A stretch of 64,000 bases of DNA from Candidatus Daviesbacteria bacterium (lineage in GTDB: Bacteria; Patescibacteriota; Microgenomatia; Daviesbacterales; UBA10151): assembly GCA_016187025.1 (NCBI GenBank), contig JACPKM010000004.1, forward strand, positions 163,637 to 227,636, given 5' to 3'. Position 1 is the stretch's first letter. Every line of letters starts with the position of its first letter. The position numbers and the translations under genes were made by a program. The notes under the pieces were generated by a model. It ran no database searches. It was not told where the DNA came from and was given only the letters and a program-made list of their open reading frames with translations. Shown here in pieces: positions 14,052-44,563 of the stretch.

Positions 14052-15182
14052 ATGAAAAAACTGCATTATGAGTCTTCGGGTGACAACTATAAATTTAAGG
14101 ACCCTTTTAAGCTAATTGCGCTAAACTATTCACAAAAAACAAAAAATAATTTAAAAAGGTTTAAAAGATATGGACTTGAGATTGTGGATGTTTCACAAAG
14201 CCGGGGTGAATCTGCCTACCGTATCCAAATAAAATCTGGTAAGCTTTCAGATTTTCAATTGGCTCATGTGGAGGAAAGCATTGGAACAAAAAACATTATT
14301 GCAGATGAGCTGGCAACTATCTATGGAAAGAGCTTTTATTTTAATAGTGCAATAGATAATGCTGCTTGTATCTTTAACGATTTATCAACCTGTGGTGCTT
14401 TTCCTTTAACTTTTATGCTGCATGTAGCAGCTTACCCTAATGAGTGGTATGCAGATTTAGACAGGTGGAAAGGGTTAATAGAAGGTACAGCAGCAGCGTG
14501 TGATATGGCTGGTGCATCTTGGGGGGGAGGAGAGTCAGCAACTGACAGAGATATTATAATCAAAGGAAAATCACTATTATCCGGTTCTGCTACAGGTATT
14601 ATTTTTCCATCATCAAAGGCATTATCAGAAGAAAATCTTAGAGATGGAGATAGAATCATTCTGCTTAAAAGCAGTGGAGTTCATGCCAATGGAATAACTC
14701 TTTTAAGACGCGAGCTTCTAAAAAGGCTTCCAAAAGGCTATAAAACAAAGCTATCTGATGGTTCAACATATGGGGAAGCTTTAATTACGCAAACGGTAAT
14801 ATATTCAAAATTAGTAGAAGAGGCTATTTTAAATTGTGATGTGCATTATGCAGTTCATATTACTGGGCATGGATGGAGAAAAATTATGAGAGCAAAAAAA
14901 CCATTTTGTTATATGATTGAGGGGATCCCTGTGCCTCAACCAATTTACGGTTTAATCAAAAAATATTCTGACTCTTCTGAGAAAGATATGTATGATACCT
15001 ACAATATGGGAGCTGGATTTGCTTTATTTGTTCCAAGAGAAAGTGTTCAAAAAATTATGCAAATTGCCAAGAAAAACAAAATTCAGGCACTAGATGCAGG
15101 GTTTGTACAAAAAGGTCCTAAGCAAGTAGTAATAAAACCCTTGGGGTTAACCTTTACTACAGAAGATATGAGTATTAGGTAG
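14052..15182 (+). CDS. purM: Phosphoribosylformylglycinamidine cyclo-ligase (AIR synthase), divergent N-terminus
   Basis: PurM-family blocks are present: ESIGTKNI, FNDLSTCGAFPL, GGGESATDR, DGDRIILLKSSGVHANGITLLRR, HITGHGW, MYDTYNMGAGFALFVP. Confidence 0.7.
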   Translation: MKKLHYESSGDNYKFKDPFKLIALNYSQKTKNNLKRFKRYGLEIVDVSQSRGESAYRIQIKSGKLSDFQLAHVEESIGTKNIIADELATIYGKSFYFNSAIDNAACIFNDLSTCGAFPLTFMLHVAAYPNEWYADLDRWKGLIEGTAAACDMAGASWGGGESATDRDIIIKGKSLLSGSATGIIFPSSKALSEENLRDGDRIILLKSSGVHANGITLLRRELLKRLPKGYKTKLSDGSTYGEALITQTVIYSKLVEEAILNCDVHYAVHITGHGWRKIMRAKKPFCYMIEGIPVPQPIYGLIKKYSDSSEKDMYDTYNMGAGFALFVPRESVQKIMQIAKKNKIQALDAGFVQKGPKQVVIKPLGLTFTTEDMSIR

Positions 15183-15248: not shown

Positions 15249-17297
15249 ATGGGGAAGGGCACAGACAATGATTATATTAATCATGAAATACTAGGGGAAA
15301 AGTGCGGGGTTTTTGGGGTACTAGGGAAAGGCTTTGAAGCAGCTCGTTTGGTGCATCCTGGTTTATGGGCGCTTCAACATAGAGGGCAAGAGTCTTCAGG
15401 TATCGCTTCCTCTGATGGAAAAAGAATCCACTCTAAATCAGGTATAGGACTGGTAGCTCATGTTTTCCAAGAAGAGGACATAAAAAAATTGAAGGGATTT
15501 TTGGCAATTGGGCATAACCGTTATTCAACTTCAGGTTCATCAACTGAGCATTGCCAGCCTGTTGTCCGCTCAGCTGGTAAGAGGCAATCAATTGCTCTTG
15601 CTCATAATGGTAACCTACCATCAACTAAAGCCTTAGAAGACTTCTTAAAGAGTAAAAAAGTATCCATAAAAGGATTAAATGATTCAGAGATGATGACTGA
15701 GGCGATTGCATATTTTATGAGACAAGGATCTTCTTTGGTAAATGCTATTAAAAAAGCCTACCCGTTATTTACAGGGGTTTTTTCTCTTTTGGTGATGGAT
15801 AAAAGCAAAATTGTAGCCCTAAGAGATAGTAAAGGGATTAGACCATTGTGTATTGGAAAGCTAGATAAAGGTTTTGTTTTTGCCTCCGAAACATGTGCAC
15901 TAGATACAGTAGGGGCAGAATACTTACAAGAGGTGAAACCAGGGGAGATGGTGGTATTGAGCAAAAATGGTCTAAATTGTATTCAGCTGGAAAAGGGAGA
16001 AGAAAAACTTGATATATTCGAGTTTATTTATTTTGCCAGGCCTGATTCTGTTTTACTGGGAAAAAGCCTTGATCAAATAAGGCAAAATCTTGGTAAAGAG
16101 CTTGCCAAAGAATATCCTATTAAAGCAGATGTGGTGATTCCTGTACCTGATTCGGCAATACCTGCAGCACTGGGATTTTCTAAAGAATCTGGTATTCCTT
16201 TTGAGATGGCATTGATTAAAAACCGTTATATACATAGAACATTTATTCATCCAGAGGAACATATTCGAGGAAAAATCGTACAAATTAAACTAAACCCAAT
16301 GCCGCATTTAATAAAAGGCAAAGATGTAATCGTTATTGATGATTCTATAGTAAGAGGTACAACCTCAAGGCAATTAATAAACATGCTAAAGAAATCCGGA
16401 GCAAAAAAAATACATTTGATGGTAAGCTCTCCTCCGGTCAGGTTTCCGGATTTTTATGGAATCAACACTCCAGATCAAAATGAGTTAATTGCAGCAAAAA
16501 TGAGTATCGAAGAGATTAGAAAAACAATCGGAGCAGATTCTCTCAACTATCTGTCATACAAGGGATTGGTAAAAGCAACCGGATTACTAGAGAGTTCGTT
16601 TTGTATGTCGTGCCTTAATGGCACTTATCCTGTAGATATTGGCGAAAAAGCAAAAACTGTCAGATATAATGTTGCCACAAATGGGATCCCCAAAAAAAGA
16701 CTTGCTGTATTAATCTCCAATAAAGGAACAGGGACAAATTTACAAGCAATCATAGATGGTATAGAAAGTGGAAAAATAAATGGTCAAATTGCAGTGGTTA
16801 TTTCTGATACAGAGCAGTCTTTAGGATTAAATAGAGCAAAAAAATATAATATAGAAATTGCTATTAATAAGAAAAAAGAAGACTTGCTAAACTTACTAAA
16901 AAAATACAACCCTGATTTTATTTGTTTAGCCGGATGGAAACAAATAATTACATTTGATGTTATTAAACATTTTTCCAACAAAGTTTTAAATGTTCATCCT
17001 GGATTAATTCCTGAGAAAATAAACGGATTTGTTAAAAATCCTGATGGTACAAAAGCTCTTTGGAATAAGGGTAAGTTAACAGATCTAGCTATCCAAAACT
17101 TTTTAAAGGCAAAAGCAACTTATGCAGGATCAACAGTGCATTTTTTATCAGAAGAGTTTGATTTTGGATTGGTGTTAGGGAGGGCATTTGTTAAAACAGC
17201 CCCAAAAGATAATGTGGAGTCTTTGTACCAGAGGCTAAAGAGCAAAGAACATGAAATTTATGTGGAGGCTTTATCAAAGTTATGCCGGGAATGTTAG
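15249..17297 (+). CDS. Fusion protein: amidophosphoribosyltransferase (PurF) plus phosphoribosylglycinamide formyltransferase (PurN)
   Basis: N-terminus has CGVFGV...LQHRGQESSGIA (Ntn glutaminase) and a PRTase domain. The C-terminal ~210 aa have RLAVLISNKGTGTNLQAII...LNVHPGLIP (PurN). Confidence 0.85.
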   Translation: MGKGTDNDYINHEILGEKCGVFGVLGKGFEAARLVHPGLWALQHRGQESSGIASSDGKRIHSKSGIGLVAHVFQEEDIKKLKGFLAIGHNRYSTSGSSTEHCQPVVRSAGKRQSIALAHNGNLPSTKALEDFLKSKKVSIKGLNDSEMMTEAIAYFMRQGSSLVNAIKKAYPLFTGVFSLLVMDKSKIVALRDSKGIRPLCIGKLDKGFVFASETCALDTVGAEYLQEVKPGEMVVLSKNGLNCIQLEKGEEKLDIFEFIYFARPDSVLLGKSLDQIRQNLGKELAKEYPIKADVVIPVPDSAIPAALGFSKESGIPFEMALIKNRYIHRTFIHPEEHIRGKIVQIKLNPMPHLIKGKDVIVIDDSIVRGTTSRQLINMLKKSGAKKIHLMVSSPPVRFPDFYGINTPDQNELIAAKMSIEEIRKTIGADSLNYLSYKGLVKATGLLESSFCMSCLNGTYPVDIGEKAKTVRYNVATNGIPKKRLAVLISNKGTGTNLQAIIDGIESGKINGQIAVVISDTEQSLGLNRAKKYNIEIAINKKKEDLLNLLKKYNPDFICLAGWKQIITFDVIKHFSNKVLNVHPGLIPEKINGFVKNPDGTKALWNKGKLTDLAIQNFLKAKATYAGSTVHFLSEEFDFGLVLGRAFVKTAPKDNVESLYQRLKSKEHEIYVEALSKLCREC

Positions 17298-18598
17298 GAA
17301 AAACAGTTCTTATTACAGATGGTGGAGGAAGAGGTGCTGCCTTAGTTGATAAATACGGCCAAAGCAAATATGTAAAAAAAATTATTGTCGTTCCTGGAAA
17401 TGACTTAATGCAAATAAATACTAAAACCCAAGTTAAAATCTTTCCTGATTTGAAAACCACCAGCATTTCAGAAATTTTACAAATCTGCAAAAAAGAAAAA
17501 GTAGATTTAGCAGATGTCGCTCAAGATAATGCCGTAGAAGTTGGGCTGACAAATGAATTAGAAAAAATTAATATTACTGTGGTTGGTCCTACTAGAGAAG
17601 CTGGACAAATTGAATGGGATAAAGCTTGGGCAAGAGAATTTATGGAAAGAAATAATCTGCCATCTCCAGCTTTTAAAATATGCACATCTGAAAGAGAAGG
17701 AATGGATTTTTTAAAAAAACAAAAAGATTCCTCATGGTTTATAAAAGCCTCAGGTCTCGCAGAAGGTAAAGGTGCACTTCCTGCTAGAAATAATGCAGAG
17801 GGTATAGAGAAAATAAAACAGTTGAAAAGTTTTGGCAAAGCAGCGCAAACTTACTTAATTGAGGAATGGTTGGTAGGTGAAGAGTTTTCAGCATTTGCTT
17901 TGTGTGATGGGAAAGACTTTATTTTTGTTGGTTGTGCACAGGATCATAAAAGAGTAAATAATTTTGACCAAGGAGAAAATACAGGCGGTATGGGATGTGT
18001 TTCAAATCCCTTATTAATAACAGACTCTATAAAAAAACAAATTAACACAATTTTTAGAAAAACTATTAATGGACTGATTAAAGAAAAACGAGATTATAAA
18101 GGTGTTTTATACTTGGGGGGAATGGTAGTTTTAGGGAAAGTTTATATTATTGAGTTTAACGCTAGATGGGGAGATCCAGAAGCACAAGTAATTTTACCAG
18201 GTATCAAAAATGATTTATATAAAGTAAGTTTGGCAATTTCCAATGGAAAATTAAATAATCTAAAAATTAAAACAGATCATTTAGTACGGGTTATTGTAAC
18301 CGCAGCATCAAAGGGTTACCCTGTTGATTACTCAAAAGCCAAAGGTAAAAAGATTTTTGGTATTAGTGAGGCTGTTGGTATTAAAGGAGTGAGCTTATAT
18401 GGGGCTGGAATTAAAAGAGTGGGAAAAGATTATTTAGTAAACGGTGGAAGAGTTTTATATACTGTAGGCTCTGGAAAAAACGTTATTGAAGCAAGGATGA
18501 AAGCATATCAGGTAATGAGTTTGATAAGCATTGAAGAAAATAATTTACACTACAGAACAGACATTGGTTGGAGAGATGTTGAGCGAATGAGAAATTAA
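17282..18598 (+). CDS. purD: Phosphoribosylamine--glycine ligase
   Basis: KTVLITDGGGRGAAL N-terminus and an ATP-grasp body. Confidence 0.85.
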   Translation: MPGMLGKTVLITDGGGRGAALVDKYGQSKYVKKIIVVPGNDLMQINTKTQVKIFPDLKTTSISEILQICKKEKVDLADVAQDNAVEVGLTNELEKINITVVGPTREAGQIEWDKAWAREFMERNNLPSPAFKICTSEREGMDFLKKQKDSSWFIKASGLAEGKGALPARNNAEGIEKIKQLKSFGKAAQTYLIEEWLVGEEFSAFALCDGKDFIFVGCAQDHKRVNNFDQGENTGGMGCVSNPLLITDSIKKQINTIFRKTINGLIKEKRDYKGVLYLGGMVVLGKVYIIEFNARWGDPEAQVILPGIKNDLYKVSLAISNGKLNNLKIKTDHLVRVIVTAASKGYPVDYSKAKGKKIFGISEAVGIKGVSLYGAGIKRVGKDYLVNGGRVLYTVGSGKNVIEARMKAYQVMSLISIEENNLHYRTDIGWRDVERMRN

Positions 18599-18602
18599 AA
18601 TT

Positions 18603-19385
18603 ATGTATACCATAGATGGTAAGAAACTAGCATCAATAAGGGAAGAAAAACTTAAAGAGAGGATTAAAAGATTAAAGATATGTCCTAAAGTTGTCAGTAT
18701 TTTGGTGGGAAATGATCCTGCTTCGGTAATGTACACCAACATGAAACAAAAAAAGGCCAAAGATGTCGGGATCGATTTTAAGCCCTTAAGACTGCCTGCA
18801 CAAACCACACCCAAAAGAGTAGTGACAGAAATCGAAAGGTTGAATAAGGATGAAGATATTGATGGAATTATGATTCAACTTCCCTTACCGGAAAAATATT
18901 TTTCTAAAAACCTAACCCCAAAAATTATTCAAAAAATAGATCCCCAAAAAGATATTGACGGTTTAACGGGAAAGGGGAAATTTATTCAAGCAACTGTGAA
19001 GGCTGTTGTAACAATTTTATCTTCAGAAAAAGAGCTTGGTAAAAATAAAAGGACTGTAGTTGTGGGAGGAGTAAGGGGAATGGTAGGAGTAGGGTTGGTT
19101 AATGAATTAAAGCGTTTGGGGGAGGAAGTTGAAGGGATAAGCAAATCTGATCCTCAATTAAAAAATAAAACCAAGAAGGCAGATATATTAATTTCTGCAA
19201 CAGGAGTAAAGAATATCATAACAGCTGAGTTAGTTAAAAAAGGAACTGTAGTGATTGATGTTTCGTATGACGTTGATTTTAAAGATGTTTCAAAATTTGC
19301 TAGTAAGATAACTCCAGTTCCAGGTGGTGTAGGACCGATGACAGTAGTTTGCTTGATGGAGAATATCTGGGAGAAGTATTTATGA
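18603..19385 (+). CDS. folD: Bifunctional methylene-THF dehydrogenase / methenyl-THF cyclohydrolase
   Basis: SILVGNDPASVMYTNMKQKKAKDVGI...IMIQLPLP. Confidence 0.85.
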   Translation: MYTIDGKKLASIREEKLKERIKRLKICPKVVSILVGNDPASVMYTNMKQKKAKDVGIDFKPLRLPAQTTPKRVVTEIERLNKDEDIDGIMIQLPLPEKYFSKNLTPKIIQKIDPQKDIDGLTGKGKFIQATVKAVVTILSSEKELGKNKRTVVVGGVRGMVGVGLVNELKRLGEEVEGISKSDPQLKNKTKKADILISATGVKNIITAELVKKGTVVIDVSYDVDFKDVSKFASKITPVPGGVGPMTVVCLMENIWEKYL

Positions 19386-22300
19386 TAGTAAGAGTTGAGG
19401 TTACATCAAAAATCATCGATTCCCGAGCCGAAGTTTTGAAAAATAAAATAAAAGGATTGGGTTTTAGAAATAGGATTAGAGACGTTAAGATTGCCGATGT
19501 CTATACACTGGAAAAGACCTTTACTAAAAAGCAATTAGAGAAAATAACACAAGCCGTTACAAATCCTGTGTCACAACAGTCTTATACTAAATTTGACAGT
19601 AAATCAAATAATATAGAAAAATTTCTACCAGTAGAAAAAGGTTTTACTCTGGCAATAGAGGTAGGGTTTTTACCAGGCGTGACTGATAATGTGGGGGCAA
19701 CCACCAAAGAGATAATAGAGGATTTGTTAAAACTTAAGTTTAAACGCACAGAAGGAGTTTATTCTTCACAGTTAATTTTTATACTAGGTAATCTTTCTAA
19801 GATGGATGCTGTAAATATAGCTGAGAGCTTAGTAAACCCCCTAATCCAAAGAATTCATGTTAAAAGCTTTGATGAATTTATGACAAGCCATGGGATGGAC
19901 TTAGTAGTGCCAAAAGTAAAAATAGATAAAAAGCCCGCTGTTTTAGAAGTTGACTTGGATGTAGATGATGATGAATTAATCATGATAGGAAAGCAGGGAA
20001 TAATGGACCCAAATGGAATAAGAAGAGGTCCTCTGGCCCTAGATTTATCTTATATGAGGGCTATCCAAAGGTATTTTCAAAAAATAGGAAGAAAACCAAC
20101 TGATGTTGAAATTGAATCGATTGCTCAAACTTGGTCTGAACATTGTAAACACACAGTCTTTAGTGACAGGATTGATGATATTAAAGAAGGGTTATTTAAA
20201 GCTTATATAAGGAAAGCAACTGAAAAGATCCGTAAACAAAAATCGGCCAAAGGCCGATGGTCCTCCGGACGAGATTATTGTGTTTCTGTATTTGGTGATA
20301 ATTCAGGAGGAATAGAATTTGACGAGAATTATTTAGTTACTCATAAGGTTGAAACCCACAATACCCCCTCTGCTTTAGATCCTTTTGGCGGATCTATCAC
20401 AGGAATAGTTGGAGTAAACAGAGATACAATTGGTTTTGGGTTAGGAGCAAAGCCGATAGCCAATGTTTACGGTTTTTGCCTGGCTGATCCAAGAGATTCT
20501 GAATTGCTGTATAAGGGGCCCCATTACACACAAAAGATGCTTTCCCCCAGAAGAATCATGGAGGGAGTAATTGCCGGAGTTAACGCTGGCGGAAATCAGT
20601 CTGGAATTCCTACACCACACGGGTTTTTATATTTTGATCATCGCTATAAGGGTAAGCCGTTGGTTTTTGTAGGTACTATTGGTTTAATACCCAAATCAGA
20701 TAATAGCAGGATACTATACGAGAAGAAAGCTCAAGTTGGTGATTATATTGTTATGATTGGAGGAAGGGTTGGGATCGATGGGGTTCATGGAGCGACTTTT
20801 TCATCTGAAGCCTTGGATAGTGGTTCTCCGGTAACAGCGGTGCAGATTGGCGATCCTATTACACAAAAGAAGTTTTCCGATGCAATAGTAAAGGAAGCGC
20901 GGGATTTAAACTTATACAACAGTATTACAGATAATGGGGCAGGAGGCTTATCTTGTTCGGTTGCCGAAATGGCCAAGGAGTCAAATGGCTGCAAGGTTTA
21001 CTTAGACAAAGTCCCGTTAAAGTATCCCAATCTTTCCCCTTGGCAGACTTGGATTTCAGAATCTCAAGAAAGAATGACATTATCTGTTCCAAAAAATAAA
21101 TGGAAGAAATGCTTGAATTTAATGAGAAGAAGAGGGATAGAGGCAACGGTAATTGGAAAGTTTAATGATTCAGGAAAGTGTCAAGTATATTATAAGAGTA
21201 AAATTGTCATGGATATAGATTTAGAGTTTTTGCATGGTGGTCTACCAAAAAGACCAATGTTAACCTCTTTTACCAAACCTGCACATATAGAACCTGAAAT
21301 TCCTCAACTTAGCAATCTTTCAGAAATACTGGAAGAGATGTTGCAAAGGTTGAATTTAACCAGCTTTGAGTTTGTATCAACTCAATATGATCACGAAGTG
21401 CAGTCAAACTCTGTGATCAAGCCTCTACAGGGTAGAGGAAGAGTTAATGGTGATGCTGTAATTATTAAGCCGCTTATTACCTCAAATAAAGGTTTGGTAA
21501 TTACAAGTGGATTGTATCCTACTTATAGTGATATCGATACTTACTATATGGCAGCAGCATCTATTGATACTGCCATCAGAAATGCAGTTGTAGCTGGGGC
21601 AAATCCTAACTCTTTGGCAATTTTAGATAATTTTTGCTGGGCCTCAAGTAATGAGTTGGAGATGTTAGGACAGTTAAAGAAAGCGGCGCAGGCTTGTTAT
21701 GATTTTGCCACTGCTTATAAAACACCATTTATTTCCGGTAAGGATAGTATGTTTAATGATTTTAAAGGATTTGATGAACATGGTAATAGAATAAAAGTTT
21801 CTATACCACCAACCCTGTTAATTTCAGCCATAGGAACAATTGATGATATCACCAAATCAGTATCTATTGATCTGAAGTTACCGGGCGATTTAGTTTACAT
21901 TTTAGGAGATACAAAAGAGGAGTTGGGTGGATCAGAATATTACGCATATTGGGGGGACAAGTTTAAGAAAAGATATATTGGTAATACAGTACCTATCACT
22001 ACAGCTGCTAAAAATCTGAAACTCTACCACAAATATTTTATATGTGTCGGGAAAGAACTAATCTCCTCTGCAATTGGTATAGGAAGGGGTGGATTAGGAG
22101 TTGCTTTAGCTAAAAAGTCAATTTCCGGTTTAGTTGGTTTAGATATTAACCTGAAAGAATTAGCAGATAATAACAAAAGAGATGACTTTGCACTTTTTTC
22201 AGAGTCACAAGGAAGAATTATTGTCTCTATTGCCCCGCAAAATAAGGAAAAGTTTGAAAGACTGATGAAAGGATGTAGTCATACACTTATTGGTGTTGTA

Positions 22301-22408
22301 AGAGAGGATAATAAATTTACAGTGAAAGGAAAGAAGGGAAATATGATTATAAACACTGATGCAATGCATTTATTAAAAAATTATAAGAAAACCTTTAAAA
22401 ATTATTAA
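19382..22408 (+). CDS. FGAM synthase subunit PurL with fused N-terminal PurS-like domain(s)
   Basis: The ATG at 19382 overlaps the folD stop (ATGA). The first ~80 aa are PurS-like (VRVEV...GF..IRDVKIADVYTLE). The PurL core starts near WSEHCKHTVF. AIRS-type domains are duplicated. Confidence 0.8.
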   Translation: MIVRVEVTSKIIDSRAEVLKNKIKGLGFRNRIRDVKIADVYTLEKTFTKKQLEKITQAVTNPVSQQSYTKFDSKSNNIEKFLPVEKGFTLAIEVGFLPGVTDNVGATTKEIIEDLLKLKFKRTEGVYSSQLIFILGNLSKMDAVNIAESLVNPLIQRIHVKSFDEFMTSHGMDLVVPKVKIDKKPAVLEVDLDVDDDELIMIGKQGIMDPNGIRRGPLALDLSYMRAIQRYFQKIGRKPTDVEIESIAQTWSEHCKHTVFSDRIDDIKEGLFKAYIRKATEKIRKQKSAKGRWSSGRDYCVSVFGDNSGGIEFDENYLVTHKVETHNTPSALDPFGGSITGIVGVNRDTIGFGLGAKPIANVYGFCLADPRDSELLYKGPHYTQKMLSPRRIMEGVIAGVNAGGNQSGIPTPHGFLYFDHRYKGKPLVFVGTIGLIPKSDNSRILYEKKAQVGDYIVMIGGRVGIDGVHGATFSSEALDSGSPVTAVQIGDPITQKKFSDAIVKEARDLNLYNSITDNGAGGLSCSVAEMAKESNGCKVYLDKVPLKYPNLSPWQTWISESQERMTLSVPKNKWKKCLNLMRRRGIEATVIGKFNDSGKCQVYYKSKIVMDIDLEFLHGGLPKRPMLTSFTKPAHIEPEIPQLSNLSEILEEMLQRLNLTSFEFVSTQYDHEVQSNSVIKPLQGRGRVNGDAVIIKPLITSNKGLVITSGLYPTYSDIDTYYMAAASIDTAIRNAVVAGANPNSLAILDNFCWASSNELEMLGQLKKAAQACYDFATAYKTPFISGKDSMFNDFKGFDEHGNRIKVSIPPTLLISAIGTIDDITKSVSIDLKLPGDLVYILGDTKEELGGSEYYAYWGDKFKKRYIGNTVPITTAAKNLKLYHKYFICVGKELISSAIGIGRGGLGVALAKKSISGLVGLDINLKELADNNKRDDFALFSESQGRIIVSIAPQNKEKFERLMKGCSHTLIGVVREDNKFTVKGKKGNMIINTDAMHLLKNYKKTFKNY

Positions 22409-22414
22409 ATCTTT

Positions 22415-23278
22415 ATGAAAAAACCTAATATATTAGTATTTTCTGGATACGGATTAAACTGTGAAGAGGAAACAAAATTTGCCTTTGAAAAAGCAGGAGG
22501 TGCTGCAGACATTGTCCACATTAACGATTTAATAGAAGGACTTGTAAGTATTGGTAATTATCAAATTTTGGCTTTTCCTGGAGGTTTTGCATACGGTGAT
22601 GACACAGGTTCTGGAAATGCGTATGCCAATAAGCTAAAAAATCACTTGTGGAAAGATATAGTTAAATTTATTAGTCAAGGAGGGTTAATAATAGGAATTT
22701 GTAATGGATTTCAGATATTGGTTAATTTAGGCCTTCTCCCAGCATTAAACAAAAAATACGGTGAAAGACAGGTAGCCTTACTTCATAACAGCTCAGCAAG
22801 ATATATAGATAGATGGGTTGATTTAAAAGTAGAAAATAAGTCTCCCTGGCTTGTTGGGATTAATAAACTTTCTGCACCGATATCACATGGTGAAGGAAGG
22901 CTTTATGTATCAGAGGAAGTATTAAAACAACTGAAAGAAAAAAGTCTAATAGCCCTAAGGTATTTCAAAGGAGAGGTATGCAATTACCAGAATTTAGAAT
23001 CTAATCCGAATGGATCAATTGATAATATAGCAGGGCTTAGTGATGAGACTGGTAGAATACTGGGATTAATGCCTCATCCTGACCGAGCACTATTTTTTAC
23101 ACAGCTGCCAAATTGGCCATTACTGAAGGAAAAACTGAAAAGAGAACAAAAGCCACTGTTCCCTGAGGGACAAGGTTTACAAATCTTTAAAAATGGTGTT
23201 AACTATTTTGCAAATATTAAAGAAGGCTTAAGCAAAAACGAGATCTTCTCTTCTTTGCCCGTTACCAATAGCCATTAA
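22415..23278 (+). CDS. purQ: FGAM synthase glutaminase subunit
   Basis: NILVFSGYGLNCEEE...GICNGFQIL...PHPDRA class-I GATase triad. Confidence 0.85.
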   Translation: MKKPNILVFSGYGLNCEEETKFAFEKAGGAADIVHINDLIEGLVSIGNYQILAFPGGFAYGDDTGSGNAYANKLKNHLWKDIVKFISQGGLIIGICNGFQILVNLGLLPALNKKYGERQVALLHNSSARYIDRWVDLKVENKSPWLVGINKLSAPISHGEGRLYVSEEVLKQLKEKSLIALRYFKGEVCNYQNLESNPNGSIDNIAGLSDETGRILGLMPHPDRALFFTQLPNWPLLKEKLKREQKPLFPEGQGLQIFKNGVNYFANIKEGLSKNEIFSSLPVTNSH

Positions 23279-24618: not shown

Positions 24619-25635
24619 ATGAAATTCTCCAGCACTTACATAGTTACTCTTGGTTCACACTCTGCTTTACAAATTTTAAAAGGAGCAAAGGATGAAGGTT
24701 TTAAAACAGCAGTGGTTTGTACTCCTAAACAAACAACTCTCTATAGAAACTATGATAAATTTATAGACGAGATAATCCAGATAGATTCTTGGGCTTCTTT
24801 TCCTCAAATGGAAAAAAGACTAATAAAGCAAAATTCCATCATTGTTCCACACGGGTCATTTGTAGCGTATTTGGGAATGGAAAGAAACAAACAAATGAGA
24901 GTACCGTATTTTGGAAACAAACTTGTTTTGGATTGGGAATCAAATAGAAAAATGCAAAGAGAATGGATGATAGCAGCAGATGTCAAGGTTCCTCACAAGT
25001 TTAAAAAGGGAGATAAAATTGATCGTCCTGTGATAGTTAAGTCTCATGGAGCCCAAGGTGGAAAAGGATATTTTGTTGCCAAAAATCAAAAAGAACTGGA
25101 TGAAAAATTGAAAGTTTTTAGTGAAGAAAAATTTATAGTACAAGAGTATGTTATCGGTGTGCCAGTGTATATACATTTTTTTTATTCTCCACTAACAGAA
25201 AAATTAGAAGTGATGAGTGTTGATAAGAGATATGAGACAAATGTTGATTCATTGGGCCGAATTCCAGCCAGGAACCAAAAAGGATTAAAAATAGAGCCTA
25301 CCTTTGAGGTGGTAGCAAATATTCCAATGGCCATAAGGGAATCAATGTTGGCAGAAGCAATGGCAATGGGTGATAGAGTAATAAATGTTTCTAAAAAACT
25401 GGTTCCACCAAAAGGATTATTTGGTCCTTTTTGTCTGGAAACAATTATCACCTCAACTGATGAAATTTATGTAATGGAAATTTCAGCAAGAATTGTTGCC
25501 GGAACAAACTGTTTTATTGACGGTTCCCCTTATACATATTTGCTTTATGATGAACCAATGAGCACCGGAAGACGGATTGCCCGGGAAATAAAGTTGGCAA
25601 TAAAGAAGAAAAGATTAAAGGAAGTATTAGACTAA
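24619..25635 (+). CDS. purP: Archaeal-type FAICAR synthetase (formate-dependent AICAR formylating ATP-grasp), paralog 1
   Basis: N-terminus TLGSHSALQILKGAKDEGF and overall length match PurP. Confidence 0.65.
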   Translation: MKFSSTYIVTLGSHSALQILKGAKDEGFKTAVVCTPKQTTLYRNYDKFIDEIIQIDSWASFPQMEKRLIKQNSIIVPHGSFVAYLGMERNKQMRVPYFGNKLVLDWESNRKMQREWMIAADVKVPHKFKKGDKIDRPVIVKSHGAQGGKGYFVAKNQKELDEKLKVFSEEKFIVQEYVIGVPVYIHFFYSPLTEKLEVMSVDKRYETNVDSLGRIPARNQKGLKIEPTFEVVANIPMAIRESMLAEAMAMGDRVINVSKKLVPPKGLFGPFCLETIITSTDEIYVMEISARIVAGTNCFIDGSPYTYLLYDEPMSTGRRIAREIKLAIKKKRLKEVLD

Positions 25636-25638
25636 ATC

Positions 25639-26733
25639 ATGAATAATCAATCACTTACCATTGCAGTACTAGGGTCTCATTCCGCTCTGGATGTTTGCCG
25701 GGGAGCAAAAGATTTAGGATTTAACACCTTAGTTATTTGCGAGAAAGGAAAAGAAAAAACTTATCAGAAGTTTTATAGATCCCAAGATGAGTTAGGTTGT
25801 GTTGACGGAGTGCTAGTTTTAGAAAAATTTGCAGATATATTAAAACCAGCTGTCCAGGAAGAACTAAGAAAAAGAAATTGCATATTTATTCCTCATAGAT
25901 CATTTGAAGTCTATTTAAACTTTGATTACAAAGCAATTGAGGAAAAATTTAAAGTGCCAATTTTTGGAAATAAATTCTTACTAAAAATTGAAGAGCGGGG
26001 AGTGAAACCTAATCAATACGACCTTTTAGAAAAAGCCAAAATAAGGATACCCAAGCAATTTAGCGATCCTAAAAAAATAGATAGATTGTGTATTATCAAA
26101 GTCCTAGAAAAAGAAAGAGGTTTTGAAAGAGCCTTCTTTTTGTGTGACTCTTATAAAGAGTATCAAAAGCAAGTAGAAGAAAAATTAGATAAAGGAATTT
26201 TTACTAAAGAACAATTAGATAAATGTGTAATTGAGGAATTTATGATCGGTGTACAAGTAAACTTAAATTATTTTTTCTCTCCAGTAGATAAAAGATTAGA
26301 GCTTCTAGGGACAGATACCAGAAGGCAAACCAATATTGAAGGATTAATTAAAACACCTGCTCCTTATCAGCAATCAATCATGGAAAAAGTAAATATAAAA
26401 TACGAGGAAGCAGGACATATTGCTGTGACAGTCTTGGAATCAATGCTTGAGCAAATTTTTGAGTTAGGGGAAAGATTTGTTAGAGTTTCTCAAAAGTTAA
26501 TACCACCTGGAGTGATTGGCCCTTTTGCCCTGCAAGCAGTAATTGTTCCAGGCCCTCCCAAAAAAGATATTATTGTTTTTGATGTTTCGCCAAGAATGCC
26601 GGGTAGTCCCGGAACTTTTGCTACACCATATAGTGGGTATTTATTTAGGCAAAATATCTCTGTTGGAAAAAGAGTTGCAATGGAAATTAAGAATGCTTTA
26701 GAAAAGAATAATTTAGAAAAAATTACAACATGA
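25639..26733 (+). CDS. PurP-family ATP-grasp protein, paralog 2
   Basis: AVLGSHSALDVCRGAKDLGF is a paralog of the upstream gene. Confidence 0.6.
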   Translation: MNNQSLTIAVLGSHSALDVCRGAKDLGFNTLVICEKGKEKTYQKFYRSQDELGCVDGVLVLEKFADILKPAVQEELRKRNCIFIPHRSFEVYLNFDYKAIEEKFKVPIFGNKFLLKIEERGVKPNQYDLLEKAKIRIPKQFSDPKKIDRLCIIKVLEKERGFERAFFLCDSYKEYQKQVEEKLDKGIFTKEQLDKCVIEEFMIGVQVNLNYFFSPVDKRLELLGTDTRRQTNIEGLIKTPAPYQQSIMEKVNIKYEEAGHIAVTVLESMLEQIFELGERFVRVSQKLIPPGVIGPFALQAVIVPGPPKKDIIVFDVSPRMPGSPGTFATPYSGYLFRQNISVGKRVAMEIKNALEKNNLEKITT

Positions 26734-28121
26734 ATATGAAAAACCTTTCAACCTACCAATCTCCCTTTTCTTGGCGTTATGGGTCAGATAGCATGCGACA
26801 GATTTGGTCTGAGGAAAATAAATACAGAATATGGAGAAAGGTTTGGGTAACTCTTGCTAAAGCTCAATACACACAAGGCCTGCTGACGAAAAAAGAATTT
26901 GATGATTTGGAAAAACACCAAGACGATATCAATATAAAAAGAATTTTAGAAATAGAACAGAGCACACAGCATGATGTTGTGGCTGCAATTAAAGAGTTTG
27001 CAGAGAAGGCTAAAGTGGGTGGAGGAAAAATACATTTGGGTGCTACCAGTATGGACATTAACGATAACGCGGATGTTCTAAGAGTTCAGGAAGCGTTAAA
27101 GTTAATCGAGGGTCAGCTAAGAAGCCTTGTTAAAAAATTCTTAGAAAAGGGGGGAAAATATTCAGATCTTGCCTGTATGGGTTACACTCATCTTCAACCT
27201 GCTGAACCCACAACTTTAGGATACAGACTTTGTTTTTATATCCAGGATCTACTAACTGATCTAGAGTTTCTAAAGTTTGTTAAAAATAATTTAAAAGGGA
27301 AAGGGATAAAAGGGGCTGTGGGTACATCTGCAAGTTATGTCAAACTTTTAAATAAAATAGGTGTAGAAAAGATGGAAAATGAGGTAATGGATATATTGGG
27401 GATTAGCGCTGTTGAAATATCAAACCAGACGGCTCCCAGAAAAATAGAATATTTGATAGGAAGTCTTCTCGCATCAATCTCACAGACTTTATATAAGTTT
27501 GCGTTTGATCTAAGAATAATGCAATCTCCCGGATTTGGTGAGTGGCAAGAACCTTTTGGAAAAACGCAGGTCGGGTCATCCGCTATGCCTTTTAAGAAAA
27601 ATCCCTGGAAAGCAGAGCAAATTTGCTCGTTATCCAGAGTTGTTGTAAGTTTATCACGGGTTCTTTGGGATAATGCAGCAAACATGGGTTTAGAAAGAAC
27701 TTTGGATGATTCAGCTAACAGAAGAGTAGTTATCCCAGAAATATTTCTAACAACAGATGAGATATTGAATATTGCCAATAATATTTTGGATGGATTAATC
27801 GTAAATGAAAAAAAAGTTACAGAAAACTTAAACAAGTATTGGCCATTTTCTGTAACTGAGGCAATTTTAATAGAGGTCGTTAAAAAAGGAGCAGACAGGC
27901 AAAAGATGCATGAGGTTTTAAAGGGTATTGCCATGAGCGCATGGCAGGAAATATCGAATGGGGAAGAGAATCCTATGAAAGATCTTTTGGAAAATGATCC
28001 GGATCTAAGTAAATATTTATCATCAGAAGAGTTAGATCAGCTATTTGATGTAAAATCACACTTGGGAAATGCCCCGGAAAAAACCAAAAGATTTTGCAAA
28101 AGAGTCAAAAAATATGTTTAG
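26730..28121 (+). CDS. purB: Adenylosuccinate lyase
   Basis: Fumarate-lyase signature GATSMDINDNADVLR...SSAMPFKKNP. Confidence 0.85.
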   Translation: MNMKNLSTYQSPFSWRYGSDSMRQIWSEENKYRIWRKVWVTLAKAQYTQGLLTKKEFDDLEKHQDDINIKRILEIEQSTQHDVVAAIKEFAEKAKVGGGKIHLGATSMDINDNADVLRVQEALKLIEGQLRSLVKKFLEKGGKYSDLACMGYTHLQPAEPTTLGYRLCFYIQDLLTDLEFLKFVKNNLKGKGIKGAVGTSASYVKLLNKIGVEKMENEVMDILGISAVEISNQTAPRKIEYLIGSLLASISQTLYKFAFDLRIMQSPGFGEWQEPFGKTQVGSSAMPFKKNPWKAEQICSLSRVVVSLSRVLWDNAANMGLERTLDDSANRRVVIPEIFLTTDEILNIANNILDGLIVNEKKVTENLNKYWPFSVTEAILIEVVKKGADRQKMHEVLKGIAMSAWQEISNGEENPMKDLLENDPDLSKYLSSEELDQLFDVKSHLGNAPEKTKRFCKRVKKYV

Positions 28122-28473
28122 ATTATGGGGGAAAGTTAAAAGAGGTCAAAGCAGGGGAAAGAAGTTGGGGTTTCCAACTGCAAACATTAATTTACATAAT
28201 AAAATGGCCCAGGGGGTGTATGTGTCTAAGATAAAGATTAAATCCCAGTTTTTTACTGCCCTAACATTTATCGGCAATGCTACTACATTTAATGAGGAAA
28301 ATTATTTAGCAGAAAGTTATATTTTGAATTTTGATAAAGATATATACGGCGAGTTTATAAGCGTTTATTTATTGAAAAAGATTAGGGGTAATATTAAGTT
28401 TAAAACGGCAAATGATTTGATTAAACAGATGAAAAAAGATGAAAAGCAGGCATTAGAATACTTTAAACAATAA
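28114..28473 (+). CDS. Monofunctional riboflavin kinase (RibF kinase domain only)
   Basis: GRG..LGFPTANI-type motif (RGQSRGKKLGFPTANI). I favour the internal Met at 28114, overlapping the purB end, over the listed start at 28069. Confidence 0.6.
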   Translation: MFRLWGKVKRGQSRGKKLGFPTANINLHNKMAQGVYVSKIKIKSQFFTALTFIGNATTFNEENYLAESYILNFDKDIYGEFISVYLLKKIRGNIKFKTANDLIKQMKKDEKQALEYFKQ

Positions 28474-28476
28474 GTT

Positions 28477-29070
28477 ATGTTTAGCGGAATCATAGAGAAA
28501 AAAACTAAAGCAATAGAGCTGAATAAAAACAAAAACAGCATAATATTAACTTTTGCTAGGCCTAAAAAATGGAGGCTTTCAGAAGGGGAGAGTATATGTA
28601 TAGATGGTATTTGCTCAACAGTGAGTAAGATCACCTCAGATACTTTTTCTGTTTATTATATGAGTGAGACACTGAGTAAAACTCATTTAATATTTGTTGA
28701 CGGTAGTCATGAATTTAATTTGGAACAGAGCTTAAGGTTAACTAGTTTAGTGGGCGGGCATCTTGTTTCCGGTCATATAGATACTGTAGGTAAGGTTGTG
28801 AATATTAGTAAAAAGGAAGACTCATCTGTTGTAAAGATTGAAATTCCTCCAGAGTTTTCAAGATACATTATTTATAAAGGATCTATCTGTGTAAATGGTG
28901 TTAGTTTAACTGTAGTTAATATAGACAAAAACGTATTTACGGTTTCACTGATTCCTTATACATTAGCTAAAACTAATTTAGGATCTCTTAAAGTAGAGGA
29001 TTTAGTGAATATTGAAGTTGATTTACTAGCAAAATACCTGGAGAAATTAACTAAAACTGAGAAAAGATGA
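28477..29070 (+). CDS. ribE: Riboflavin synthase alpha chain
   Basis: MFSGIIE...GESICIDGICSTV and the repeated lumazine-binding half GSICVNGVSLTV. Confidence 0.8.
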   Translation: MFSGIIEKKTKAIELNKNKNSIILTFARPKKWRLSEGESICIDGICSTVSKITSDTFSVYYMSETLSKTHLIFVDGSHEFNLEQSLRLTSLVGGHLVSGHIDTVGKVVNISKKEDSSVVKIEIPPEFSRYIIYKGSICVNGVSLTVVNIDKNVFTVSLIPYTLAKTNLGSLKVEDLVNIEVDLLAKYLEKLTKTEKR

Positions 29071-30194
29071 AAAACAAAATTGGAATTGTAGGTGGTGGGC
29101 AACTGGGAAAAATGTTAACCCTTGAGGCTAAAAGATTAGGTTTTACAGTAGTGATCCTTGATCCAACTAGAAAAAGTCCTGCAGCTCAGGTATCAGATTA
29201 TCAACTAGTGGCAGATTTTAAAAATGAAAAAGCTATTAAACGGTTGGCTGAGCTTACAGATTACATAACTTTTGAAATAGAGCTTGCTAATGCAGATATT
29301 TTAAATGAAATTTCTAAACTAGGAGCAAAGGTTAATCCATCTGCAAAAACGTTAAATATTATTAAAGATAGGCTGAAACAAAAAGAGTTTCTTGTAAAAA
29401 ATAATATTCCAGTAGCGCCTTTTAGAAATGTCAACAACAGAGAAAATATTTTAGAATCAGCCAAAAAACTGGGATATCCGATTTTATTAAAGGCCCGGCT
29501 GGATGCATATGATGGTAGAGGAAATGTATTAATAAAAGACGAAAAAGAAATTGATGATGCTTTAGAAAAGTTGGTGGATAGAGAACTTTTCTTAGAAGGG
29601 TTTGTTTCATTTAAGAAAGAGCTTGCTGTGATGATTGCAAGAAGCTCAAAAGGTGAAATAGCTGTGTATCCAGTAGTGGAAACAGTTCACAAAAATAGTA
29701 TTTGTCATACGGTTTTTGCACCAGCTCCTGTTGATACTGCTATACAAAAAAAAGCAAAAAATCTAGCAATAAAGGTTATAAAGGTTTTAAAGGGTGCAGG
29801 GGTCTTTGGAATTGAAATGTTTTTGACTAAAGATAATAAAGTATTGGTAAATGAAATAGCTCCAAGAGTCCATAATTCAGGTCATTACTCAATTGAGGCT
29901 TGTTTAACTTCTCAATTTGAACAACATATACGGGCAATAACAGGACTACCTTTAGGAAGAACTGACATGGTTGTTTCTGCTGCTGTAATGATAAATATTT
30001 TAGGTGAAAGACATGGGCAATCAGAATTAAAGGGTTTAGAAAAAGCCTTAAAGCTGCCTAATGTTTCTGTACATATATATGGCAAGACTGAGACAAGGAT
30101 AGAAAGAAAAATGGGTCATATTACTGCTATTGATTCCTCTTTAAAGAAAGCGTATAACAAGGCATTAATAGCAAGAAAACTGATTTCAATTTAA
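29067..30194 (+). CDS. purK: N5-carboxyaminoimidazole ribonucleotide synthase
   Basis: [22 protein letters not shown] and an ATP-grasp body. Confidence 0.85.
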
Positions 30195-36827: not shown

Positions 36828-37463
36828 ATGGATAGTCCTGCCAACAACCAATTAGTAAACAACACATATTTTGAGGGGTCAAAATCTAGATTCAGACTGT
36901 TTAGAATAAAGTTATGGCCTTTTGGGGTATATGCAGTATTGGGACTGGTTCTTCTGGTTGAAATTGTATTAGGTATACAACAGTTAATTAAACCTCCCCC
37001 CTCACTACAGCCCTCGCAGCCTATTTCAGGTGGTAAGATTGCCCTTGTATCCTCTGCAAAAGAATATAAGCTGGGAGATGAGGTAACAGTTTCTGTTAAA
37101 GTATCTACCTCAGGTAATCCGACATATGGGGTAGATTTAGTTGTTATTTACGATCCCAAGGTCCTTGAAGCAACCTCCAGTTCTTTTTTTGAAAAGGGCA
37201 CAATTTATTCAGAATACCCTTTAGCAAGCTTGGATACACAAAATGGAGTTATTAAGGTTTCAGGTATTGCTTCAGGCAATCAAAAAGGTTTTAATGGAAG
37301 TGGGACCCTTGCAAGTTTAAAGTTTAAGGCCAAATCAGCAGGCAATACAACACTGAAGGTAGATTATAAAAAAGATGCGACAAATGAAAGTAATATAATT
37401 GAATCAACTGAGGCCAAAGATATCTTAGACAAGACTTATGACCTGAAATTAACCGTTAAATGA
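36828..37463 (+). CDS. Membrane-anchored cohesin-like domain protein
   Basis: N-terminal TM anchor. The following ~140-aa beta-rich domain (KLGDEVTVSVKVSTSG...VDLVVIYDPKVLEA...GSGTLASLKFKAKSAGNTTLKVDY) matches the cohesin type-I pattern (V.V.V.....G..LAxIxFKAK.AG...L). Confidence 0.5.
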   Translation: MDSPANNQLVNNTYFEGSKSRFRLFRIKLWPFGVYAVLGLVLLVEIVLGIQQLIKPPPSLQPSQPISGGKIALVSSAKEYKLGDEVTVSVKVSTSGNPTYGVDLVVIYDPKVLEATSSSFFEKGTIYSEYPLASLDTQNGVIKVSGIASGNQKGFNGSGTLASLKFKAKSAGNTTLKVDYKKDATNESNIIESTEAKDILDKTYDLKLTVK

Positions 37464-38191
37464 CTATGAAAAAAATCATTTCCATTTTCATCTTAACTTC
37501 TGTCTTTTTAATTTTACCGCTACCTGTTTTTGCAGCTACTCTTTCTTTGTCCCCTTCCACCGGTAATTTTAACAAAGGCTGTGATGTTACAGTTGATATA
37601 AACTTAAACACAGAAGGAGTGCAAACAGATGGGACAGATGCAATTGTTTTATATGACTCTTCACGCTTAACCGCTAATCAGATTGTTTCCGGCCAAATCT
37701 ATTCAGATTATCCTGGAAATAATATCGATGAGCAGTCGGGCAAGATAACTATTTCAGGTTTATCATCTGTAAGCAGTGCCTTTTCCGGTAGTGGCACTTT
37801 TGCAAAAATTAACTTTACTGTTAAAGATAATGCTTCGGTAGGGGTAACGCAAGTAAAATTTGATTTTGACTCAAATGATAAATCCAAAACTACAGATTCT
37901 AATGTGGTTGAAAGAGGTACTGTAGCAGATGTATTAAGCTCAGTAGTAAATGGAAATTATACTATTGGTTCCGGTGCCTGCACTGTTCAAGGAAGCCCTC
38001 CGACTATTGTAGTTACCCCTCCTGTTTCTCAAGGCGGGATCTCTACTCCATCAGGAGCAGTAAAAACTCCTGTCAAAACAATAGATGATATGGTGGGTGG
38101 TAAAACCGGCTCTCAGGAATTTAGTTATATGCTGGCAATACTTGGGGTAACAATGGCAGTACTGGGAGTGTTAGGGTTTGCTCTTCTTTAA
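37460..38191 (+). CDS. Secreted cohesin-like domain protein with C-terminal TM anchor
   Basis: Signal peptide ends ...LPVFA-ATL. Cohesin-like core LSLSPSTG...CDVTVDINL...DAIVLYDSSRL...GSGTFAKINFTVKDNASVGVTQVKFDF. C-terminal hydrophobic helix MLAILGVTMAVLGVLGFALL. ATGA overlap with the upstream gene. Confidence 0.5.
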   Translation: MTMKKIISIFILTSVFLILPLPVFAATLSLSPSTGNFNKGCDVTVDINLNTEGVQTDGTDAIVLYDSSRLTANQIVSGQIYSDYPGNNIDEQSGKITISGLSSVSSAFSGSGTFAKINFTVKDNASVGVTQVKFDFDSNDKSKTTDSNVVERGTVADVLSSVVNGNYTIGSGACTVQGSPPTIVVTPPVSQGGISTPSGAVKTPVKTIDDMVGGKTGSQEFSYMLAILGVTMAVLGVLGFALL

Positions 38192-38199
38192 AACAATGT

Positions 38200-39147
38200 A
38201 TGATTCTGTCGGCATTAATTACAGATTTTTTAGAGTATTTGGAGTTGGAAAGAAATACTTCACAATTAACAATTAAAAACTACGACCACTATTTAAAGCG
38301 GTTCCTGGATTTTGCCCATTCGACAAGCTCAGGGCAGGCCGGAGACATTGATCCAAAAGAGATAGATCTTAATCTAATCAGAAAATATAGGTTGTATCTG
38401 TCCCATTATGTAGACCCTAAAACGGGTAAAGGTTTAAAAAGGGTTACGCAAAATTATTTTATGATAGCCTTAAGGGCTTTTTTAAGGTATTTGGCAAAAA
38501 ATGATATCGCTACCCTTTCGCCTGAAAAAGTAGAGTTAGGTGAGAGAGAGCCTCGGCCGTTCAAGGTTTTGGAAGAAGGTCATCTAAAGCAACTGCTGGA
38601 TGCACCGGACACCACAAAAAAAGAAGGAATTAGAGACAGAGCGCTTCTTGAAACTCTTTTTTCTACAGGACTGCGGGTTTCAGAGCTTGCCTCTTTAGAC
38701 TGTAATCAAATTAATCTAAACAGAGGTGAATTTGGAGTGGTGGGAAAAGGTGGAAAAGAGCGGGTGGTGTTTTTGTCTGATGCAGCTTCTTTTTGGCTTG
38801 CTAAATATTTAGAAAACCGTAAAGATACCTTTAAGCCGCTATTTATCAGATATCAGGGTAAGGTTATCACTGACAATTCTGGTGAAGCAATGAGGCTGTC
38901 AGCAAGATCTATTGAAAGAATAGTTGAAAAATATGTTAAAAGGTTAGGTTTGCCGATAAAAGCTACTCCTCATACACTAAGACATTCGTTTGCCACAGAT
39001 TTGCTAATAAATGGAGCAGATATTAGATCAGTTCAAGAGATGCTGGGGCATTCTAATATTTCCACCACCCAGATCTACACCCATGTCACCAACAAGCATT
39101 TAAAGGATGTTCATAAAGCTTTCCACAGCGGGAATAAGGAAGAATAG
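38200..39147 (+). CDS. Tyrosine site-specific recombinase (XerC/XerD family)
   Basis: R...HTLRHSFATDLL...LGHSNISTTQIYTHV with catalytic Tyr; 315 aa. Confidence 0.85.
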   Translation: MILSALITDFLEYLELERNTSQLTIKNYDHYLKRFLDFAHSTSSGQAGDIDPKEIDLNLIRKYRLYLSHYVDPKTGKGLKRVTQNYFMIALRAFLRYLAKNDIATLSPEKVELGEREPRPFKVLEEGHLKQLLDAPDTTKKEGIRDRALLETLFSTGLRVSELASLDCNQINLNRGEFGVVGKGGKERVVFLSDAASFWLAKYLENRKDTFKPLFIRYQGKVITDNSGEAMRLSARSIERIVEKYVKRLGLPIKATPHTLRHSFATDLLINGADIRSVQEMLGHSNISTTQIYTHVTNKHLKDVHKAFHSGNKEE

Positions 39148-44350: not shown

Positions 44351-44563
44351 TTAAAGGGTTTTTCCTGCCAGCCCGTAAACTAAAAAGTCCTGAAAAAATC
44401 CAGGTGCCTGTAAAGGCCAGCTGATAATTACCATATAATAGCCAGGTGAAAGAAAAGATAAAGGCGGCCAGCGGTAATAAAGAGCAAAGAGCAAAGCGAA
44501 AAAGAATCCAACCATAAAATAGGCAATTGCCAGCTTGCTTATTAACGGCTGAAATCTAATCAT
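44351..44563 (-). CDS. Small membrane protein co-transcribed downstream of gyrA
   Basis: 70 aa with two TM helices and a 4-nt overlap with the gyrA start. Confidence 0.3.

Follow-up and report, generated by a model that had tools for sequence, protein, structure and literature searches.

In this study we analysed a stretch of 64,000 nucleotides from a Candidatus Daviesbacteria bacterium (assembly GCA_016187025.1, contig JACPKM010000004.1, positions 163,637 to 227,636), which is called the window in the following and is numbered from its first letter. The gene of interest is an open reading frame (ORF) at 15249..17297, stop codon included, which starts with ATG, encodes 682 amino acids and joins two enzymes of purine synthesis in one chain: the amidophosphoribosyltransferase PurF, responsible for step 1, and the glycinamide ribonucleotide (GAR) formyltransferase PurN, responsible for step 3. 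The gene and all of its features described below lie on the plus strand. An in-frame fusion of this kind and length had been proposed earlier from the letters of the DNA and a list of its reading frames (the original prediction), and it is borne out by the ORF list together with our domain scans. The exact 682-residue protein is present in NCBI nr, where it is titled 'amidophosphoribosyltransferase [Candidatus Daviesbacteria bacterium]'.

The PurF domain extends from 15303 to 16631 (residues 19-461) and comprises the glutaminase half of the N-terminal nucleophile type as well as the phosphoribosyltransferase (PRTase) half. Its delimitation is based on TIGR01134, on the solved structure 1AO0 and on Foldseek; the NCBIfam purF equivalog TIGR01134 matches residues 19-461 over the complete model (1-432 of 432) with 461.7 bits at a cutoff of 350, and Pfam Pribosyltran is found within this part with 38.3 bits (cutoff 26.3). 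The closest solved relative is PurF of Bacillus subtilis (1AO0; phmmer, 399 bits), and structural superposition on 1gph/1ao0 gives Foldseek template-modelling (TM) scores of 0.89-0.90. The PurN domain follows at 16695..17285 (residues 483-679), delimited by PF00551, TIGR00639, PDB matches and Foldseek. Pfam Formyl_trans_N (PF00551) covers residues 483-675 over the full model (1-181 of 181; 108.7 bits, cutoff 26.1), and comparison with the solved PurNs 3auf, 3p9x and 2ywr yields TM scores of 0.78-0.84 at a root-mean-square deviation of about 2 Å. None of the PDB matches is a solved chain that spans both parts. Like a multifunctional purine enzyme, the gene product contains two complete catalytic domains in one uninterrupted, conserved frame, and at the level of sequence comparison 15249-17297 is confirmed as a true in-frame PurF-PurN fusion in which both sets of predicted catalytic residues are intact.

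For the conservation of individual residues we considered 41 fused homologs, which align over the whole length at 52-75% identity. The alignments to TIGR01134 and to 1AO0 (in mature numbering) begin at Cys19, the counterpart of Cys1 in mature B. subtilis PurF; its codon occupies 15303-15305, and the residue is invariant (41/41). M1-K18 (15249..15302) accordingly form an N-terminal propeptide of 18 residues, not of 17 as had been counted previously, and we infer from the alignments that it is removed before Cys19. E17 and K18 are conserved among the homologs, while the length of the N-terminal extension differs. The PRPP-binding loop VIVIDDSIVRGTT (16326..16364, residues 360-372), where PRPP stands for phosphoribosyl pyrophosphate, is the same as the motif of B. 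subtilis PurF in the alignment and matches the loop pattern of type I PRTases (hydrophobic-DD-S/T-x-x-x-G-x-T); D364, D365, S366, I367, V368, R369, G370 and T372 do not vary in the fused homologs.

The positions of the iron-sulfur cluster depart from this picture of likeness. In B. subtilis PurF, the [4Fe-4S] cluster is bound by Cys236, Cys382, Cys437 and Cys440. According to the 1AO0 alignment, the first two positions are occupied by Asp255 (16011..16013) and Asp401 (16449..16451), and both are Asp in 41/41 fused homologs. Over 233 PurF domains, Asp is found at these positions in 154-157 sequences and mostly Cys in the others (67-74); the division is alike in fused and unfused PurFs. The second pair of former Fe-S positions is kept as Cys452-x-x-Cys455 (16602..16613; B. 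subtilis Cys437/Cys440 in the alignment), with Cys452 retained in 37/41 and Cys455 in 35/41 homologs. The B. subtilis-type subclass is characterized by a propeptide and a [4Fe-4S] cluster bound by four cysteines; here the four cysteines are incomplete, though the propeptide is kept. The propeptide of B. subtilis PurF has 11 residues. Compared with that enzyme (1AO0/1GPH), the window protein thus has the propeptide before the catalytic Cys and the PRPP loop in common, but differs in its longer propeptide, in the two Asp residues and in the PurN domain at its C-terminus.

In the PurN part, the catalytic NxHP motif is Asn581-Val-His583 (16989..16997), aligned with NIHPS of solved PurNs; it lies in the LNVHPGLIP segment that had been recognized before and that we locate at residues 580-588. 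The third residue of the triad is Asp638 (17160..17162), aligned with the catalytic Asp of the human, Aquifex and Symbiobacterium enzymes. In E. coli PurN the triad consists of Asn106, His108 and Asp144. His583 and Asp638 are found in 41/41 fused homologs and Asn581 in 40/41. Given that Cys19, the PRPP loop, His583 and Asp638 do not vary and that Asn581 is lacking in a single homolog, both active sites are under purifying selection.

What is peculiar to this domain is a lineage-specific insertion of about 19 residues after HPGLIP (EKINGFVKNPDGTKALWNKGK; 17013..17075, residues 589-609), visible as a gap in the HMMER alignment to human GART. It carries the motif NPDGT..WN.GK, in which the fused homologs show no variation at P598, D599 and N606 and hardly any at W605, and it extends the spacing from His to Asp to 55, compared with 36-39 in canonical PurNs. 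Canonical PurNs lack the insertion, which fused and unfused PurNs of Microgenomates have in common. It was not brought about by the fusion, because unfused PurNs and PurN-PurD fusions of related genomes carry it as well. With stand-alone PurNs (E. coli 1CDE/1C2T, Aquifex 2YWR, Symbiobacterium 3AUF), the window domain shares the Formyl_trans_N fold, the N-x-H-P motif and the catalytic Asp; it differs from them in the additional residues, in the absence of a start codon of its own, and in its match to the PurN equivalog TIGR00639, which covers residues 483-679 with 126.6 bits and stays under the cutoff of 150.1.

The low score and the position of the insertion beside the active-site loop could mean that GAR is formylated elsewhere and that the PurN-like formyltransferase domain at the C-terminus either serves another acceptor or acts on PurF as a regulatory or folate-sensing module; the PurP-like enzymes encoded in the same cluster, which would use formate for the later formylation, likewise point to an unusual usage of one-carbon units. 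We consider such a role improbable. PurN is by far the best family (PurU and Fmt reach only 47.9 and 44.7 bits), all 18 of 18 PDB sequence matches are GAR formyltransferases (PurN/GART), and the structural similarity and the conserved Asn/His/Asp triad agree with this assignment. Furthermore, relatives with split genes encode the same divergent protein at the place of purN, flanked by purF and purD, folD is part of the operon, and the cluster contains no PurT. This context supports the predicted specificity of the domain for GAR and 10-formyl-tetrahydrofolate. A PurT-like match at 29067-30194 was considered as an alternative enzyme of step 3 and rejected, as it is PurK (448 bits versus 200); a profile scan gave no other PurN or PurT candidate within the purine cluster.

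The two domains are connected by the linker KAKTVRYNVATNGIPK (16647..16694, residues 467-482), delimited in a junction alignment of 42 fused proteins, among which its length and sequence vary. The fusion point itself is a homopolymer of seven adenines (A7; 16692..16698, in the context CCC AAA AAA AGA), and the gain or loss of a single A would end the product as PurF alone, with 487 or 491 residues. As a run of this kind lies exactly at the junction, and as close relatives possess split genes, one has to ask whether a frameshift in sequencing or assembly has created the fusion in a genome with separate purF and purN. Several observations speak against it. The 2049-nt gene is identical, with 0 mismatches, on three independently assembled contigs (SRR12113422, SRR12113424 and SRR12113385), and the same gene is also present in the metagenome-assembled genome (MAG) deposited at NCBI; the in-frame junction NGIPKKR(L/V)AVLIS is retained, despite synonymous differences, in two relatives that are 74-75% identical; and about 100 clusters of fused proteins exist with diverse linkers. 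A separate PurN could not even be started, because there is no in-frame ATG, GTG or TTG between residues 466 and 482. The frame at the junction, where a frameshift had been named in advance as the possible flaw, is therefore intact in three independent sequencing runs, and we regard an artefact at A7 as essentially refuted.

A related explanation accepts the sequence and assumes two products: slippage at A7 during transcription or translation, or proteolysis in the linker, would yield free PurF in addition to PurF-PurN. The three closest fused relatives all preserve the homopolymer at this place, and a shift by one base in either direction leads to a PurF-only protein that ends 5-9 residues later. 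Yet A7 is the expected remnant of an ATGA junction and encodes a conserved Lys-Lys, it is absent from the junction of the more distant fused genes (L004, L086), and a shifted frame would leave PurN untranslated for want of a start codon. Production of two proteins from this gene is hence very unlikely.

How the fusion may have come about is suggested by the split relatives. One Daviesbacteria locus (L001) encodes a PurF of 514 and a PurN of 199 residues and is syntenic with the window from TGT through purQ; another (L003) encodes a PurF of 469 and a PurN of 199 residues. In both, the stop codon of purF and the start codon of purN overlap as A-ATG-A (4-nt ATGA). At L003, purF ends with GGC AAA TGA and purN begins with ATG AAA AGA, where the window reads CCC AAA AAA AGA; the two junctions are thus a 2-nt TG indel apart. 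The presence of the A7 run is explained by this, because removal or insertion of TG interconverts the split ATGA state and the fused state. We hypothesize that purF and purN were adjacent and translationally coupled in a Microgenomates operon purM-purF-purN-purD-(folD)-purSL-purQ, and that a TG indel at A-ATG-A led to the continuous AAA AAA A frame of the window gene, or the reverse. In the simplest case, the fusion would accordingly go back to two neighbouring genes with coupled translation that became one. That a single 2-nt indel separates the two states makes the locus a clean example of how overlapping stop and start codons ease fusion and fission.

In most Daviesbacteria, purF and purN are separate neighbours (78 split PurFs). 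A neighbour-joining tree of the 233 PurF domains, which is a distance tree of a biased sample, requires at least 9 changes of the fused state, compared with about 75 when the labels are shuffled; in this model the fused state appears clade-structured but labile. The clade of the window gene (P0001-P0003) is sister to the 78-member clade of split Daviesbacteria, and it is nested among fused clades of Microgenomates. The tree topology leans towards an ancestral fusion that was retained here and would have been undone by a single fission in the main line of Daviesbacteria.

Fusions among the enzymes of the first three steps are by no means confined to the window. For an overview, 353 proteins were collected from two homology searches and one search of a representative library, and were classified with hidden Markov models built for this analysis. 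PurF-PurN is the architecture of 102 of the 353 proteins, and PurN-PurD that of 19; PurF-PurD occurs in 11, into some of which a PfkB or SAICAR-synthase domain is inserted, and two proteins combine all three enzymes as PurF-PurN-PurD (P0008, 1117 residues; P0304, 1411 residues). A single protein (P0285) shows the reverse order PurD-PurF, which would place the catalytic Cys inside the chain. The source names of fused proteins include Daviesbacteria, Levybacteria, Microgenomates and Saccharibacteria. The junction is covered by about nine clusters in a library of 1.84 billion proteins that were grouped at 50% identity. One of these (P0128) comes from a GC-richer organism and consists of PurF and a canonical PurN without the insertion (Pfam, 189.6 bits); its operon is arranged as purL-like (AIRS)-purQ-purM-purCE-purFN-purD-purH. 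Because of its canonical PurN and the different operon, an independent origin of this fusion is pointed to.

A scan of GTDB genomes with an alignment of the PurN domain gave, among the matches listed, mostly canonical PurNs at 30-38% identity; the close loci among them are split (L005, L006, L007, L009 and L010), apart from one PurN-PurD fusion (L008). Three of these loci (L006, L008 and L009) belong to MAGs with pur genes of the type found in the candidate phyla radiation (CPR), whose titles read 'Gammaproteobacteria', 'Pseudomonadales' or 'Saccharibacteria'; of these, 'Gammaproteobacteria' and 'Pseudomonadales' look like mis-binning or mislabelling. Further fusions of purine enzymes were encountered in public metagenome data. 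There are direct PurF-PurD proteins of 870-905 residues, one of them named Woesearchaeota, as well as PurF-PfkB-PurD, PurF-PurC-PurD and PurC-PurN proteins, and a prokaryotic PurC-PurE fusion that resembles animal PAICS. These other fusions (P0285, P0339-P0352, P0278/P0279, P0304, P0337, P0134; L085, 2951-4192) likewise look undescribed.

The functional interpretation depends on the gene that follows. In step 1, PurF converts PRPP and glutamine to phosphoribosylamine (PRA); PurD consumes the labile PRA in step 2, and PurN uses the stable GAR in step 3 to form formyl-GAR. purD lies at 17282..18598 (+; TIGR00877, 360.3 bits, cutoff 288), and from its start at 17282 it shares 16 nt with the fused gene. 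This matches the ORF coordinates and the original prediction; if translation began at the next in-frame ATG (17291), the overlap would shrink to 7 nt. The same prediction had held that a fusion of the enzymes which make and consume PRA suggests channeling, and this part has to be corrected: the consumer of PRA is PurD, and PurN takes GAR. Channeling enzymes catalyse consecutive reactions with a shared intermediate, whereas the fused sites serve steps 1 and 3 and PurD is encoded separately at 17282-18598. Since the two steps are not consecutive, the covalent link by itself passes no intermediate between the fused sites.

We therefore presume, with good though not full confidence, that the gene encodes a bifunctional enzyme which goes back to a mutationally easy join and which brings a benefit in stoichiometry or co-localisation at most. 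The PurF part would act as a glutamine-PRPP amidotransferase by means of Cys19, exposed once the propeptide is removed, and of the PRPP loop; the PurN part would act as a 10-formyl-tetrahydrofolate-dependent GAR formyltransferase through Asn581, His583 and Asp638. A short flexible linker would join the two, each domain would work at its own active site, and step 2 would be supplied by the overlapping downstream purD. What the covalent link certainly gives is 1:1 co-expression and co-localisation of the two domains. AlphaFold2 models both domains of the fused protein confidently, with a mean predicted local distance difference test (pLDDT) of 85.1 and a predicted TM score (pTM) of 0.69, while the propeptide (residues 1-18) and the linker at 474-478 are disordered, with pLDDT below 50; a natural PurF-PurN-PurD fusion reaches a mean pLDDT of 87.6 and a pTM of 0.53. 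As weak negative evidence, neither model suggests a confident fixed geometry between the domains.

Some points weigh against this interpretation. Both activities, and a benefit from stoichiometry or co-localisation instead of channeling, are inferred from sequence. The TIGR00639 score under the cutoff and the insertion in the loop after the catalytic His weaken the case for the predicted substrate specificity of PurN, and the occurrence of Asp in place of two of the four Fe-S ligand cysteines casts doubt on the cofactor status and the stability of the PurF part. With regard to the models, pTM alone, without a map of predicted aligned errors, would be compatible with a real interface. Finally, the fusion is kept in many lineages and accompanied by PurN-PurD, PurF-PurD and PurF-PurN-PurD fusions, which could reflect selection for proximity and not a neutral join.

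The last point leads to a more far-reaching explanation, according to which the fusion was selected because PurF, PurD and PurN form one complex, a minimal bacterial 'purinosome'. The PurF-PurN scaffold of Daviesbacteria would dock PurD, PRA would pass from PurF to PurD and GAR from PurD to PurN without release, and the set of fusions would amount to Rosetta-stone evidence for such a complex. All pairwise combinations are indeed found in related small-genome lineages (PurF-PurN 102, PurN-PurD 19, PurF-PurD 11, PurF-PurN-PurD 2), and the sister fusions hint, if indirectly, at an association of the three enzymes. The 16-nt overlap of purD and the PurN insertion with its invariant residues fit as well. 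For E. coli, section 4.2 of PMC10912719 relates that channeling of PRA between PurF and PurD was inferred kinetically (Rudolph & Stubbe 1995, cited there) and that a stable complex was never found. However, the genes are neighbours in the order purF-purN-purD, and fusions of neighbours are mutationally the easiest, so that a functional reason is not needed. Moreover, most Daviesbacteria are unfused (the 78 split PurFs), AlphaFold2 does not arrange the domains with confidence even in the triple fusion (pTM 0.53), variability and disorder mark the linker, and PurNs that are not fused carry the conserved insertion just as well. We consider a selected complex of this kind, and its channeling of PRA in Daviesbacteria, rather doubtful on balance, and prefer the bifunctional enzyme from an easy join. 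If the complex were true, the fusions, above all P0008, would provide, in stable and structurally tractable form, the complex of PurF with PurD for which a search has been under way in E. coli since 1995.

The transient channeling complex proposed for E. coli PurF-PurD concerns the same labile intermediate that the original prediction had invoked. A docking model of the E. coli pair was reportedly published by Wang et al. 1998. The window gene differs from this pair in that its PurD is unfused and its PurN neither makes nor uses PRA; relatives of the gene carry covalent versions of the pair, namely PurF-PurD and PurF-PurN-PurD. Together with PurF-PurN and PurN-PurD, these proteins are natural covalent constructs for the long-standing, physically unconfirmed idea of PRA channeling between PurF and PurD.

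Multifunctional purine enzymes (GART, PAICS, ATIC and the purinosome) are textbook cases of pathway organisation. To our knowledge, PurF has never been part of the eukaryotic multifunctional purine proteins. The trifunctional GART of animals is composed of GARS-AIRS-GART (PurD-PurM-PurN), and fungal Ade5,7 of PurD-PurM (PMC10912719). The window protein resembles them in that a PurN-type enzyme or pathway neighbours are covalently joined through flexible linkers, with steps that are not all consecutive (2, 3 and 5 in the eukaryotic case); it differs in its partner PurF (step 1), in the order PurF then PurN, in its bacterial (CPR) origin, and in the separate genes for PurD and PurM. In halobacteria, a PurN-PurH1 fusion was recognised by comparative genomics only (PMC3261824). 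It is likewise a prokaryotic fusion of PurN with a purine enzyme of a non-adjacent step, but its partner is a formyltransferase for aminoimidazole carboxamide ribonucleotide (AICAR), so that two folate-dependent steps are joined; this logic of a shared cofactor is absent from PurF-PurN.

We found no description of PurF-PurN, purFN, PurF-PurD or CPR purine fusions in a literature search that mostly did not extend to papers in subscription journals. As far as we could find, PurF-PurN is therefore an undescribed variant of the multifunctional purine enzymes, the known fusions (GART, Ade5,7, PAICS and PurN-PurH1) being without PurF; a fusion that includes PurF, the enzyme of the committed step, is what this variant adds. 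The earlier suggestion that the architecture is undescribed stands in so far as no paper on it came to light, but the architecture is not rare, with around 100 clusters in sequence databases. There, fused proteins are named merely 'amidophosphoribosyltransferase', and pathway reconstructions for CPR bacteria that rely on the names of these proteins of about 680 residues could miss step 3. Taken alone, the join of PurF and PurN is most simply explained as a side effect of overlapping genes in a streamlined genome, and it overturns nothing.

The fused gene is embedded in an extended purine cluster. Upstream in the same operon lies a purM-like gene with AIRS/AIRS_C domains (14052..15182, +), which scores 144.4 bits against TIGR00878, below the cutoff of 236, and shows a weak AIRS N-domain; strongly divergent as it is, it occupies the purM position in the operons of relatives too. 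Downstream of purD, the operon continues on the plus strand with folD (18603-19385), a purL with a PurS-like N-terminus (19349-22408) and purQ (22415-23278). The order from the purM-like gene to purQ is the same in L001 and L003. PurL, with 1019 residues, possesses about 230 extra residues at its N-terminus, which match PurS weakly (18.6 bits at a cutoff of 22.2, hence below it), and the PurL homolog of L003 also shows a faint one; purL is probably a second fusion (PurS-PurL) in this operon. The remainder of the cluster contains purA (23228, opposite strand), two PurP-like genes, purB (26730), a riboflavin-kinase domain and ribE, and ends with purK, purE and purC, reaching to 31701.

PurP is a formate-dependent AICAR formyl ligase and is usually called an archaeal signature enzyme. 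The two PurP-like genes of the window stand in tandem (24619-25635 and 25639-26733, +) and score 398 and 292 bits, both under the equivalog cutoffs; neither PurH nor PurO was seen in the scanned part of the window. Between purB and purK, the region 28069-29070 (+) contains ribE and a riboflavin-kinase domain that stands alone and corresponds, with its 134 residues, to the C-terminal half of RibF; ribE encodes riboflavin synthase. An Rfam scan of the whole window for purine, PRPP or ZTP riboswitches gave no match at the gathering thresholds, and consensus scans for promoters and terminators between 13 and 24 kb returned counts equal to the shuffled expectation. Farther downstream, at 36828-39147 (+), a tyrosine recombinase/integrase comes after two small cohesin-domain proteins that are encoded side by side, and an ORF of 948 residues as well as two smaller ORFs in this vicinity have no Pfam match. 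The cumulative GC skew peaks at about 44 kb and turns upward at about 56 kb, in coincidence with switches of the coding strand; gyrA is located at 44560-47091 on the minus strand.

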